Shown here: positions 58,372-64,000 of the stretch, piece after piece
Layout: the number at the start of each line of letters is the position of its first letter
How positions within the stretch are numbered: position 1 is the first letter of the stretch
Assembly (NCBI GenBank): GCA_038043045.1
Contig: JBBTCX010000081.1
Coordinates: 5,561-69,560, forward strand
Source of the DNA: Planctomycetota bacterium
GTDB lineage: Bacteria > Planctomycetota > Phycisphaerae > UBA1845
Length of the DNA: 64,000 nt
Direction: 5' to 3'
The notes under the pieces: model-generated
Database searches by the model: none
The model's input: the letters and a program-made list of their open reading frames with translations, nothing else
Told to the model about the DNA's origin: nothing
Made by a program: the position numbers and the translations under genes

Positions 58372-60219
58372 TCATTGCCCCGTGAACGTAATTTGAAAGC
58401 CAAGAAAATCTCTCATGTCCACACGATTGTCACCATTGAAGTCCATGCATTCGCACCCGTCGGCCAAAGAATTCCCAGGGCCGGTCTCGCATTGGACATA
58501 CTTTGCGTAATCCGTCAGCTCGATGAGCGCGTTGGCGTCGGTATCACCTCGTACAAACGGATTCAAGGCCAACGCATCAGAGATCATCGGAATCGGCGCG
58601 CCCTTGTTGGTATCCAACCAGAGTTGATACAGCGCGTCGCCCCAGCCATCGGTGACATTGCCATCGCGCAGGGCTTCGATGTAATGCCGGGTGACTGTTT
58701 GATAATTGACCGTCACTTCAACGCGAGCGGCATCTTCGGGGATCCAGAAGTTGGTGTCGTCCCAATGTTGTCCGTCGGCGTAAAGCGCACCGACCGCGGG
58801 CGCGCCACCGGCTTCGTAGTTTGCGTTGTTGAATCCGCGCGGAGGAATGCGAGTGTCCTTAATGATCGAATCGGCGAGGGCCATGTGTGTCGTAACACCG
58901 GCCGGGTAGCCCGTAATCTGTGATGCGAAATCGCTTAGTCCCACGTGCATTTCGTAGATGTCCGTTGATTCTTCATCCAGGTGTGCGGTGGTCGAGTCGT
59001 AATGACCATACTCGCGCACGAGCTGATCGCCCCCGTCATACACTCTGACATTGGTCCAAATGCGACGACCCTCGATATGGCCGGTCGGAATTTTGTGACC
59101 GCTTTCATTGATGACGCGGACGCGCACGCCGCCGCAATCCTGTTCCAATTCAAGCGACGCGGCGCGTTCTAACATCGAAACCGCTTTGGCTCGCCCCTCC
59201 AAAAGCGCAGCCTGATCGACATTGGGGTCCTTTTCATAGTAACGTCCGATGATTTCCAATACCCACGCCGAAGCTCCGGCAAACTCGTGTCGCTTCATAT
59301 CCGTGCGAGTGGGACCGAAGAAGCAGGCCTGCGCCGTGACTTGCGGCATGTGGCAATCCTGGCAGGTGCTGACCACTGTCATCTGGCCACCGAATCGTCC
59401 GCCCATATCCACGCCGCCGTTGGCGAAAGCGCTGAGCTTCCACTCGGTGTACGTGCGTTCGAGTGGAAACTGTTCCCAAGGATCTTCGGTCGGTGTCGCC
59501 TCGTTAAGGTTGTTGTAGCGGAAGGTGCCATTGGGCTGTTTGGTCACGGCCACATTGCCGACGTCGTGGCAAGTGCCACACATGTCGCCCGTTCGATGAA
59601 ACGGAGATGCGATGGTGTCGTGTGGTGCCGTTGTTGCGTCGCTGTATGGCCCTCGGCGAACGCCGTTGGGATCTAATACAAACATAGAGTTTCCGTAATA
59701 CTGTGGTATTCCGGTGAGAGCATTGAGAATTGGCATATCTTCGACCGGGCTGATACCGGGCTTGTAGATCGGATCAACCATGGCGTGGCAGAAGTTGCAA
59801 GTGACGCCGTCTTGGTCCGTTTCGTCGAGCGTGCTTCCGTCGGGTTGATAGGCATGGCCGGTGACGAAGGACAATGGAACATGGCAGCGCATGCAGAAAT
59901 ACCCGACGTTGGCGACGTCTTGATTGGCCGTGGTCATTTGGGCGTAGAACAGCGGGTCACGGCCTGCCTGGCCCATGAGACTGCCGGACCAATTTCGGTG
60001 CGGCTCGTTGACGGGATCGTAGTTGCCGTGGCACATGGCGCAATTCCCCGATGTGAGGATCGACCCCTCGGGCATGTCTCCCACCTGAGTGCCCGACAGG
60101 TGAAAGTCTTGAATGGTCATTGGGACCAAAGCGGCTGCGGCCAAACCCACGGACAATATGATGGCCACCGTGACTTTTTTAACAGACGGCGCAGCAATTC
60201 GATTCCTGAATCCGAGCAT
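58372..60219 (-). CDS. Secreted pentahaem c-type cytochrome with C-terminal dockerin-like module
   Basis: 615-aa ORF with signal peptide KKVTVAIILSVGLAAAALVP. Motifs CAMCH, CMRCH, CNFCH, CGTCH, CQDCH. C-terminus YVQCETGPG...CECMDFNGDNRVDMRDFLGFQ. Confidence 0.85.
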   Translation of the reverse strand: MLGFRNRIAAPSVKKVTVAIILSVGLAAAALVPMTIQDFHLSGTQVGDMPEGSILTSGNCAMCHGNYDPVNEPHRNWSGSLMGQAGRDPLFYAQMTTANQDVANVGYFCMRCHVPLSFVTGHAYQPDGSTLDETDQDGVTCNFCHAMVDPIYKPGISPVEDMPILNALTGIPQYYGNSMFVLDPNGVRRGPYSDATTAPHDTIASPFHRTGDMCGTCHDVGNVAVTKQPNGTFRYNNLNEATPTEDPWEQFPLERTYTEWKLSAFANGGVDMGGRFGGQMTVVSTCQDCHMPQVTAQACFFGPTRTDMKRHEFAGASAWVLEIIGRYYEKDPNVDQAALLEGRAKAVSMLERAASLELEQDCGGVRVRVINESGHKIPTGHIEGRRIWTNVRVYDGGDQLVREYGHYDSTTAHLDEESTDIYEMHVGLSDFASQITGYPAGVTTHMALADSIIKDTRIPPRGFNNANYEAGGAPAVGALYADGQHWDDTNFWIPEDAARVEVTVNYQTVTRHYIEALRDGNVTDGWGDALYQLWLDTNKGAPIPMISDALALNPFVRGDTDANALIELTDYAKYVQCETGPGNSLADGCECMDFNGDNRVDMRDFLGFQITFTGQ

Positions 60220-60961
60220 GGTTTTCCCCCTCCACTATTTCGGAAAAGACCTCTAAGTTCGTGGCCCAGAACATCATCTGGGTGTGTGTCAACTCATTCG
60301 TTTCGAGCAACCTTTCAAAGGTGGTTCGCGACGGACATTGCCCATCGAGACGAAAGGCCTTTGAAAACGACACCCATAATTGTTGAATGGCAGAATCGTC
60401 GAGTTTTCCGGAACGAATCAGCCGACCTTCTACATAGATATCCCACAAGACCGCGTAGCGATCGCGGATGAGATTCTGCTGAACCGGCGAGACAGCAGGC
60501 AACCGAGTATCGTAGCCGAACCGTTCATTCACCATATCCTCGACATGTTGCAGTTGCCGGCGTAGCCAAGGTGTTAACTGTTGGTGATCCAACAGGGACT
60601 CTGGACACAGCGCGATAATCAATGTTGGTTCGCCGACTTCGTTAGAAGAGTCGGATTTTCGAGTGTACAAATCGACGCTTTGAGCGCGGGTGCGCTCGGC
60701 CTCTCGGACGAGACAACAGTTCAAATGCTCCGCCAAGAGTGGAAACTCATCAACCGCATGAGGTACAAGTCCGTCGAGACCAAATCGTCGAAACAAGTCG
60801 CCATGCGCCGCTCGAAACGCACGCCGTCGAAGCTCGACGTCGGTCATTCTGTAGAGTGGATCGAGTACGTCATGCGACGCGCACTCTTGAACGGGATCGC
60901 GCTTGGCGCTCAAGAACGTCGCTTGCTCGACGAAATTCGGATCGTACTCAAATCGCATCAT
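60179..60961 (-). CDS. Cytoplasmic protein of unknown function
   Basis: 260-aa ORF with no signal peptide or TM helix. The start overlaps the TorD-like stop (ATGA at 60958-60961), and the 3' end overlaps the cytochrome gene by 41 nt. It sits where a gamma subunit would be in type II DMSO-reductase operons but shows no haem-b or signal features. Confidence 0.55.
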   Translation of the reverse strand: MMRFEYDPNFVEQATFLSAKRDPVQECASHDVLDPLYRMTDVELRRRAFRAAHGDLFRRFGLDGLVPHAVDEFPLLAEHLNCCLVREAERTRAQSVDLYTRKSDSSNEVGEPTLIIALCPESLLDHQQLTPWLRRQLQHVEDMVNERFGYDTRLPAVSPVQQNLIRDRYAVLWDIYVEGRLIRSGKLDDSAIQQLWVSFSKAFRLDGQCPSRTTFERLLETNELTHTQMMFWATNLEVFSEIVEGENHARIQESNCCAVC

Positions 60962-61731
60962 TTCTCGCTTTCACCAGTCGTCGGACTTTGGATGCCGACT
61001 TGAACCAACTGGTTGGCGGCGGAGGCTCCGCAACCGGAGGTTTCGCAATCAATCGCGGCGTCTCGCGCTTCATCGATCGGTCGGAGTTCGAGCCATTGTG
61101 GACCCATTTCGATGTCGAATTCGCGGCACTCCTCGGCGATAAACGAGGCCGCAAGCGCCGCGAGGCGGCCATAAAAACCTTCAGGTTCGGCTTGAATGAC
61201 CCGGTGAGTGAAGGCGGGCAGCCAACGCGACAGGTGGTCCCGTAGGAACAATCGCTGGGCGTCCGCGCAGGTTTCAGCGAGTTCGGGATGATCTTGATTC
61301 CGCCCCCAAGCCTCTTTGGCGCACAAGACACTCATGAACTCGAATTCGACGGACAGATGGTCGGATCGTTCGTGGGCGGACTCGCTGATGCTCATTCCAA
61401 ATGCACTGTAAAACCCGGTCAAATCGGCCAATTCGGCGGTTTGTTGGATGATCTCGCTACGTCCATATTCCAACTCGTAAGGCGGACAGGTTCCGCGAAC
61501 GGAATGGCCGAACAGACGCGAATAACTTCCTCGTAAGACTTCCAGGTCCAACGGTCGGAGCGCTTCTGCGGCTTCGGGCCAAAACGAAAGGCGTCCGGGT
61601 TCGCCAAAAAGCTCAACAACCGACATTTCGGGATAACGCCATCCATTGGCCAGCATGCCGTACGCTGCAGCCCGAACCTTCACGGACTTGGTTGCGTTAG
61701 ATCGAGTTTGCATGGCTGGCTGGTCGCACAT
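60958..61731 (-). CDS. TorD/NarJ-family redox-enzyme maturation chaperone
   Basis: 257-aa ORF. YSRLFGHSVRGTCPPYELEYG, DHLSVEFEFMSVL and FLRDHLSRWLPAF match the TorD/DmsD/NarJ-type pattern. Confidence 0.75.
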   Translation of the reverse strand: MCDQPAMQTRSNATKSVKVRAAAYGMLANGWRYPEMSVVELFGEPGRLSFWPEAAEALRPLDLEVLRGSYSRLFGHSVRGTCPPYELEYGRSEIIQQTAELADLTGFYSAFGMSISESAHERSDHLSVEFEFMSVLCAKEAWGRNQDHPELAETCADAQRLFLRDHLSRWLPAFTHRVIQAEPEGFYGRLAALAASFIAEECREFDIEMGPQWLELRPIDEARDAAIDCETSGCGASAANQLVQVGIQSPTTGESEK

Positions 61732-63633: not shown

Positions 63634-63949
63634 TCAATACTGTTAGGTTGACTACCCGTTTTTCCGTGATCCGTGCGATTGCGCCGTTGCGACGTCCTCC
63701 CCAGCGAGCAAGAACCATGTCCACGAGTTCACGAATTCGCTCCTTGCCCAGAGCCGTGGTAGCCATGAATGGGCCGGCGTAGCCTCGCGTGTTGAACATG
63801 TGCAGGATGCGATCGGCATCAAAGCCAAGCCGCGCATATTCATCGATGAAGCACTCCGCCATTTCACACATGGCCGCATCGTCGGATGTTTCTACCGCTA
63901 CTCCGTGGAGCGTCATCGGGTCGGTTGGATCAGGATCGTCGTAAGGCAT
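63626..63949 (-). CDS. Small acidic protein of unknown function
   Basis: The track ORF starts at a TTG at 63997, and the frame is open to the window edge. ATG 63949 (MPYDDPDP) is preceded by AGGA 8 nt upstream and is preferred. No recognisable motif. Confidence 0.45.
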   Translation of the reverse strand: MPYDDPDPTDPMTLHGVAVETSDDAAMCEMAECFIDEYARLGFDADRILHMFNTRGYAGPFMATTALGKERIRELVDMVLARWGGRRNGAIARITEKRVVNLTVLNG

Positions 63950-64000
63950 CGCTTTATTCCTCGAAAACCTGTTCTTTGCCTGAACGATAGTCGCCAATGA

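Follow-up and report, generated by a model that had tools for sequence, protein, structure and literature searches.

An ordinary nitrite oxidoreductase-type operon of a Phycisphaerae bacterium, cut by the edge of the analysed window

The alpha and beta subunits at the window edge

The window analysed here is a stretch of 64,000 nucleotides from a Planctomycetota bacterium of the class Phycisphaerae (lineage UBA1845; GenBank assembly GCA_038043045.1, contig JBBTCX010000081.1, positions 5,561 to 69,560). At its far end lie, all on the minus strand, genes for an iron-sulfur (Fe-S) beta subunit, a TorD/NarJ-type chaperone (delta), a hemerythrin-like protein, two small cytoplasmic proteins of 107 and 260 amino acids and a multihaem cytochrome. 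These six genes had been listed in an initial annotation made from the sequence alone, and open reading frames (ORFs) together with domain matches establish every one of them at the positions given below. The same annotation described the beta subunit as lacking an adjacent molybdopterin alpha subunit, and this is not what is found: the end of the alpha gene lies inside the window, and the region from 53.7 to 64.0 kb is very probably the distal part of a single minus-strand operon for a nitrite oxidoreductase (NXR)/nitrate reductase of the Kuenenia/Nitrospira type, predicted to be exported by the twin-arginine translocation (Tat) pathway.

The alpha gene is represented by its last 14 codons and stop (63954..64000, minus strand), the remainder lying beyond the window. 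Read from position 64000 on the minus strand, a single frame gives ..IGDYRSGKEQVFEE*, with the stop codon TAA at 63956-63954, followed after four bases by the ATG of the 107-amino-acid gene. In close relatives, the molybdopterin subunit of about 1165 amino acids terminates in ..GGFLGTYSTGREEVFEE or ..GGFLGSYQTGKEETFEE, and both this C-terminal motif and the 7-nucleotide offset between the alpha stop and the start of the small gene are shared by the window and two related loci (L085 and L088). The gene was overlooked in the ORF list because its reading frame runs off the window.

An extension of the sequence was obtained through the 260-amino-acid protein, which is 100% identical to a database entry (P0121); an exact look-up of the beta sequence found no entry. 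Exact look-ups from P0121 led to two short Logan contigs of run ERR3858137 (L090 and L091), the second of which agrees with the window at each of the 179 nucleotides of the overlap and continues for 151 nucleotides past position 64000. Its first ORF, AINTVPKETLVRITKAEDGGLGGKGIWAPATTGLTPGNENDMMKRYLAGGFIGDYRSGKEQVFEE* (65 amino acids), matches residues 1094-1144 of Kuenenia NxrA (PDB 7B04_B; E 6.6e-19) and shares 80% identity with the terminal part of the L085 alpha subunit. A database search with this tail returned 205 matches, all of them short C-terminal fragments, and the majority of those bearing a name are labelled nitrate reductase alpha subunit. An NxrA-type alpha is thus encoded in the same operon as beta, with the full gene of this organism outside the sequence seen; the "missing" alpha is an artefact of the window edge, just beyond which the catalytic gene starts.

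The beta subunit (61697..62974, minus strand) has 425 amino acids, begins MPNVFNWQLGRQMQYPYE, has no signal peptide and matches Fer4_11 (E 4e-23). Its 15 cysteines, arranged in four groups, are the ligands for three [4Fe-4S] clusters and one [3Fe-4S] cluster. The subunit was placed by contrasting bit scores against solved structures, in lieu of a formal tree. It scores 565.6 bits over the full length of Kuenenia NxrB (7B04_A), with 62% identity and 15/15 Fe-S cysteines aligned, compared with 201 bits for EbdB, 201 for PcrB and 175 for NarH (structures 2IVF, 4YDD and 1Q16, for ethylbenzene dehydrogenase, perchlorate reductase and NarGHI, respectively). It also falls under the NCBIfam cut-offs of the type II beta subunit (TIGR03478, 254 vs 480.7 bits), of EbdB (214 vs 740) and of the NarH equivalog (TIGR01660, 182 vs 524), and family profile searches gave no match to a NarI-type family among the genes of the 53.7-64.0 kb region. 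Judged by these comparisons, beta is orthologous to the NxrB of the periplasmic NXR of the Nitrospira/Nitrospina/anammox type, and the resemblance to Nitrospira and anammox NxrB noticed in the initial annotation is borne out.

Gene order in related loci and the accessory genes

In order to place the operon in context, 89 loci carrying a beta homologue were collected, three of which are short contigs that carry either the window's own sequence or a nearly identical one. They derive from Phycisphaerae and other Planctomycetota, Binatia, Verrucomicrobiota, Acidobacteriota, Latescibacterota, Omnitrophota, KSB1, Methylomirabilota and others, so that the operon family spans more than ten phyla. The window proteins were mapped onto these loci, and the counts that follow are limited to loci with enough flanking DNA. 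Of the 73 loci whose upstream DNA extends to 1.2 kb or more, 72 have alpha upstream of beta on the same strand; all 49 whose upstream DNA reaches 6.5 kb or more have a gamma gene ahead of alpha; and delta together with a homologue of the 260-amino-acid family lies downstream of beta in 76 of the 77 loci with sufficient downstream DNA. The usual order is gamma, alpha, a protein of about 107 amino acids, an optional hemerythrin, beta, delta and a protein of about 260-330 amino acids. The downstream "slot" for a gamma subunit proposed in the initial annotation was therefore misplaced. The possibility it had raised that alpha lies beyond position 64000 is confirmed by the tail inside the window, by the NxrA-like residues of L091 and by this conserved order.

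Among relatives with sufficiently long contigs, the closest (L085, whose beta is 90% identical) repeats the order of the window exactly, with an Rrf2 regulator, gamma (597 amino acids), alpha (1163 amino acids), the small protein, hemerythrin, beta, delta and a 250-amino-acid protein. The cultured isolate Phycisphaerae bacterium RAS2 (CP036352) carries Rrf2, gamma, alpha, the 107-amino-acid protein, beta, delta and a 328-amino-acid protein. Genes found near the operon among the related loci include the Rrf2 regulator (25 loci), NnrS (10 loci) and MoaA (24 loci). In another locus with a beta 90% identical to that of the window (L086; GCA_013391925, labelled Methyloceanibacter sp.), the bin is labelled alphaproteobacterial and gamma and alpha are each broken into two ORFs; mis-binning combined with frameshift errors is the likely explanation. 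An Rfam scan of the window and two related loci detected no riboswitch, the sole Rfam match of the window being one tRNA gene (35264-35348, plus strand). The scan for terminators gave no convincing minus-strand candidate inside the cluster, so the boundaries of the operon are inferred from gene spacing.

The alpha of the relatives scores 1743-1764 bits against 7B04_B, and twin-arginine motifs (e.g., TRRDFL, SRREFI, TRREFL) were found on alpha in all 17 relatives inspected. In the Kuenenia stuttgartiensis enzyme, the FS0 cluster is ligated by three cysteines and one aspartate (Cys67 and Asp71 among them), Asn70 stands on the substrate side and Asp275 is the molybdenum ligand (PMC8387239); Cys67, Asn70, Asp71 and Asp275 are all conserved in the alpha of the relatives, including L085. 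Their gamma is a fusion of two cytochrome c domains with an EB_dh haem-b domain; the dihaem cytochrome c part resembles Kuenenia 6H5L_B (130 bits), and the NxrC/EB_dh part scores 54 bits.

From a comparative perspective, the nearest described system is the NXR-ABC complex of K. stuttgartiensis (kustd1700/1703/1704; PDB 7B04; PMC8387239), which shares with the window and its close relatives the beta subunit, the alpha with its FS0 ligands, Asn70 and Asp275, and the EB_dh haem-b domain of gamma. By locus-tag numbering, nxrA (kustd1700) and nxrB (kustd1703) of Kuenenia are also two genes apart. In contrast to Kuenenia, the gamma gene in the family of the window precedes alpha and encodes a fusion with two cytochrome c domains, a homologue of the tubule-inducing subunit NXR-T was not seen, and the host is a non-anammox Phycisphaerae bacterium. 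The Nitrospinae-type NXR of a metagenome-assembled genome (MAG; RIFCSPLOWO2_12_FULL_45_22, locus L092) has an alpha tail, a beta 64% identical to that of the window and delta in one operon, as here, but is without a homologue of the 107- or the 260-amino-acid protein; these two genes therefore mark the clade of the window rather than periplasmic NXR operons in general. This Nitrospinae locus (MHDQ01000004) carries two type II DMSO-reductase clusters back to back, the first with the NXR-like alpha tail, beta and delta, and the second with gamma, alpha and beta that are 41-46% identical to the first type. Ethylbenzene dehydrogenase, perchlorate reductase and NarGHI have in common with the present system the general type II build, namely an alpha with molybdenum-bis(molybdopterin guanine dinucleotide) (Mo-bisMGD), a beta with four clusters and a chaperone of the TorD/NarJ type, but differ in operon order, in the low beta scores given above (175-201 bits) and in the NarI subunit, which is absent here.

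The delta protein (60958..61731, minus strand; 257 amino acids) is a cytoplasmic maturation chaperone of the TorD/NarJ type, with a PF02613 match of 81.3 bits against a gathering score of 22.2 (E 9e-23). It scores 83 bits against the cut-off of 152 for the TIGR03482 subfamily and resembles PDB 2O9X (E 5.5e-6). The end of the beta gene overlaps delta by 35 nucleotides, an overlap that is the same in L002 and L085.

The two genes between alpha and beta had been put forward as a possible pair of inserted genes, following their description as an acidic 107-amino-acid protein and a hemerythrin-like protein. That description is accurate for both; as regards insertion, it holds for the hemerythrin, a lineage-specific addition, and fails for the 107-amino-acid gene, which belongs to the core in nearly all of the 89 loci. 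The latter (63626..63949, minus strand) encodes a conserved cytoplasmic protein with 17 acidic (D+E) against 12 basic (K+R) residues, whose family pattern, drawn from an alignment of 80 distinct sequences, is MPYxxPDxTDP..MAxxFxEEFxRxG..LF..P.YAG..LGe. It has no match in Pfam, NCBIfam or the PDB, and its single-sequence AlphaFold model is helical and of low confidence (predicted local distance difference test, pLDDT, 63.8).

The 260-amino-acid protein (60179..60961, minus strand) is, as previously noted, predicted to be cytoplasmic, with no signal peptide, transmembrane segment or family match. Searches of Pfam at E values up to 10 with full-length relatives of both small proteins gave nothing. 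The family of the 260-amino-acid protein comprises 869 representative clusters at 50% identity, and the 55 homologues retrieved are all unnamed. The majority of the family, across most phyla, carry the motif HExxHxxDMxDPxF and a C-terminal CPLC...CxxC ribbon (such homologues were noted in L029, L042, L051 and L076), whereas RRQLQH stands at this place in the window copy and its nearest relatives, which have lost the first histidine and the ribbon. The model of the window protein is confident, with a pLDDT of 89.8; Foldseek searches with it found nothing significant in the PDB or BFVD, and the weak but recurrent similarities are to zincin-like folds (4L7A, E 0.11; SprT/M34/IrrE-type viral proteins, E at least 0.004). 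The model thus hints at a metalloprotease fold, and the protein may be a degenerate metalloprotease-like maturation factor. Its reading as a truncated pseudogene of the 329-amino-acid form was rejected, the nearest relatives being 250-259 amino acids long. No discussion of the 107- or 260-amino-acid gene was found in the literature.

The hemerythrin/HHE di-iron protein is encoded on the minus strand at 63010..63633, as an ORF of 207 amino acids, or from 63597, as 195 amino acids (PF01814, E 5e-23). Against the YtfE, DnrN and RIC equivalogs, whose cut-offs are 205-300 bits, it scores 25-33 bits (21-33 bits over all comparisons with YtfE and DnrN), and it shows a remote likeness to the YtfE of the PDB (E 0.002). 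It shares with RIC/YtfE/DnrN the HHE domain and a nitrogen-oxide gene setting; unlike them it is without the N-terminal ScdA domain, and by its scores it is not a member of these families. The hemerythrin stands immediately upstream of beta in 14 loci, all near relatives of the window, and a homologue occurs elsewhere within 10 kb in four Binatia or deltaproteobacterial loci. The 107- and 260-amino-acid genes are core genes of the clade, and the hemerythrin is an insertion of a subclade.

The cytochrome module and other genes of the window

Downstream of the core genes lies a secreted pentahaem c-type cytochrome (58372..60219, minus strand; 615 amino acids) with exactly five CXXCH motifs, an N-terminal hydrophobic segment and an MtrC/MtrF domain (31.8 bits); no segment resembling a transmembrane helix was seen in the other five proteins listed. 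The initial annotation had called it dockerin-tailed. The five haem sites and the hydrophobic segment agree with that description, but the dockerin is weaker than it implied: the isolated tail scores 18.1 bits against Dockerin_1, under the gathering score of 22.9 (E 0.003). Two D-x-D/N-x-D-G...D repeats resembling calcium loops are kept in the tail of the two closest homologues. Homologues of the cytochrome follow the nxr cluster in just two loci (L001 and L006, 66-70% identical).

At the far side of this region is a membrane polyferredoxin (53729..55400, minus strand, start codon uncertain) with a NapH/MauN-like Fer4_5 domain, transmembrane segments and a C-terminal TPR region. It scores 46-48.5 bits against NapH/MauN models whose cut-offs are 213-234 bits, and shares with them the Fer4_5 domain only. 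A homologue stands beside the nxr cluster in L001-L004, L013, L015, L016 and L019-L021, and the cytochrome and the Fer4_5/TPR membrane protein occur together near the cluster in several Phycisphaerae loci; by this distribution, they form a side module specific to the Phycisphaerae.

Between the two genes are inserted two tandem beta-eliminating lyases (55452..58330, minus strand), a tyrosine phenol-lyase equivalog (56834..58330; TIGR02618, 778.6 bits, above the cut-off of 720.7) and a lyase of the tryptophanase subfamily (55452..56870). Aromatic amino-acid lyases are thus found here within a respiratory gene cluster. The tandem pair, absent from all the related loci mapped, is an insertion specific to the window, outside the NXR system.

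Elsewhere in the window, positions 1383-15413 hold a dense cluster of multihaem c-type cytochromes that resembles a periplasmic/extracellular electron-transfer conduit. Its members include an NHL-repeat/MtrC-like protein of 925 amino acids, a Paired_CXXCH_1 protein (E 1e-49), a NapC/NirT-like protein and a multihaem protein fused to cytochrome b561. A minus-strand gene region at 16401-30319 encodes a 2158-amino-acid protein with SpvB, FG-GAP, TcdB_toxin_midN and RHS repeats (Tc-toxin/Rhs-like), preceded by a 1915-amino-acid Laminin_G_3 protein and a 561-amino-acid protein without a family match. Three consecutive HtrA-like proteases with trypsin and PDZ domains are found at 49257-53556 on the plus strand.

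Predicted function, direction of catalysis and meaning

From these data, nitrite/nitrate turnover is the predicted activity of the encoded enzyme, and a working scheme can be outlined. The promoter-proximal genes beyond position 64000 would be, as in the relatives, those for the Rrf2 regulator, gamma and an alpha of about 1165 amino acids. Alpha would be loaded with Mo-bisMGD and FS0 in the cytoplasm, helped by the TorD/NarJ-like delta, while beta, which has no signal peptide of its own, would receive its four Fe-S clusters and leave together with alpha through the Tat pathway; gamma would be exported on its own. Electrons are expected to travel between the molybdenum centre, FS0, clusters FS1-4 of beta, haem b and the two haems c, to or from other periplasmic cytochromes. 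The 107- and 260-amino-acid proteins would serve in assembly or as accessory factors particular to the clade. A probable task of the di-iron hemerythrin is to protect or repair Fe-S clusters, or else to sense nitric oxide or O2, and the pentahaem cytochrome and the NapH-like membrane ferredoxin are candidates for a link to the quinone pool.

As for the direction of catalysis, nitrate respiration seems the somewhat likelier use. In vitro, the K. stuttgartiensis enzyme is bidirectional and reduces nitrate about 25 times faster than it oxidizes nitrite (PMC8387239), and the linked Rrf2, NnrS and MoaA genes, like the RIC-like hemerythrin, are in keeping with nitrate respiration and nitrosative stress. 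The main alternative is a true nitrite-oxidizing NXR, in which electrons from nitrite would reach a terminal oxidase by way of beta, haem b and the two c haems of gamma, for energy gain or at least for nitrite detoxification. In its favour are the orthology of beta and of the relatives' alpha to the Kuenenia/Nitrospira-type NXR and the two CcoP-like cytochrome c domains of gamma, which are of a high-potential type; moreover, nitrite oxidation has been hypothesised for this clade in Planctomycetota MAGs (PMC10732223). Against it, no cultured nitrite-oxidizing planctomycete is known outside the anammox group, the window shows no linked genes for carbon fixation or an oxidase, and the linked Rrf2, NnrS and RIC-like hemerythrin recall the gene surroundings of denitrification. 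Besides the preference of the enzyme type for reduction in vitro, the broad clade contains nitrite oxidizers but also the enzymes of Thermogutta and Methanoperedens, which reduce nitrate. Nitrite oxidation is thus possible though doubtful; if true, it would make this organism a planctomycete nitrite oxidizer outside the anammox group.

Several points weigh against the proposed Tat-exported NXR/nitrate reductase, or against its use in nitrate respiration. The complete alpha and gamma of the organism are outside the sequence seen, and it is relatives with a beta 85-90% identical that supply the Tat signal and the active-site residues. Gene linkage is the basis for the roles proposed for the 107- and 260-amino-acid proteins, the hemerythrin, the pentahaem cytochrome and the NapH-like protein. 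A Verrucomicrobiota locus (L038:1-5636) has beta and the small gene without alpha or gamma within 4.3 kb upstream, where the genes are on the opposite strand; it is the sole related locus so arranged, and split arrangements may occur, whether this one is a true split or an assembly artefact. The CcoP-like domains of gamma would also suit electron flow to an oxidase, and nitrite oxidation is the direction preferred in the one paper to discuss these genes of planctomycetes (PMC10732223).

A more far-reaching version of the proposal, in which the NXR is wired through the pentahaem cytochrome and the NapH-like ferredoxin to the multihaem cluster at 1-15 kb, with the 107- and 260-amino-acid proteins as new clade-defining maturation factors, is improbable. 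If it were true, extracellular Fe(II) or Mn could be oxidized enzymatically in dependence on nitrate or, in the reverse direction, nitrite oxidation by a non-anammox planctomycete.

Still less probable is another enzyme of the type II DMSO-reductase family, acting on chlorate, perchlorate, selenate or, as ethylbenzene dehydrogenase does, on a hydrocarbon. Some database records do call homologues "chlorate reductase subunit beta" (e.g., in RAS2), and the NCBIfam models that score best are those for the generic type II subfamilies of beta and alpha; nevertheless, the type II beta and EbdB scores stay far under their cut-offs, PcrB and EbdB reach about 200 bits where NxrB reaches 566, and the alpha of the relatives retains the NXR-specific set of Cys67, Asn70, Asp71 and Asp275. 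Lastly, the orphan beta/chaperone pair offered as one option by the initial annotation, uncoupled from alpha and exchanging electrons through the pentahaem cytochrome, could draw on the lack of a complete alpha ORF in the window, on the multihaem cytochrome that follows the cluster and on L038, but is refuted for all practical purposes by the alpha C-terminus inside the window and its continuation in L091, as well as by the upstream alpha of nearly all loci and by a cytochrome that lies downstream in the two nearest full-length relatives only.

The operon is therefore an ordinary NXR-type operon, biochemically uncharacterised and cut by the window edge: a standard alpha gene lies directly past position 64000, and beta groups firmly, by bit scores, with a characterised family. 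NXR-type genes have already been reported from metagenomes in Planctomycetota, and the "novel Nxr-type" genes of MAGs from the Oslofjord tunnel belong to the same enzyme clade (PMC10732223); the bins OFTM371, OFTM236 and OFTM353 correspond to L007, L013 and L026 of the present set, with a beta 77-84% identical to that of the window. That study gives an alpha phylogeny only, without the operon architecture, the 107- and 260-amino-acid genes, the hemerythrin or the cytochrome/NapH-like module.

The main value of the analysis is a correction, since an apparent orphan redox subunit turns out to be an edge artefact of the known Kuenenia/Nitrospira NXR family. The residual interest lies in the hemerythrin insertion, in the question of direction and in the two accessory genes, as the operon family, across its many phyla, keeps to a fixed architecture in which two of the conserved genes encode cytoplasmic proteins without a name. 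In RAS2, a cultured relative with the same core operon, the question of direction is directly testable, and whether the NXR-type enzymes of such planctomycetes oxidize nitrite or reduce nitrate bears on the interpretation of nxr genes in metagenomic surveys of the nitrogen cycle.

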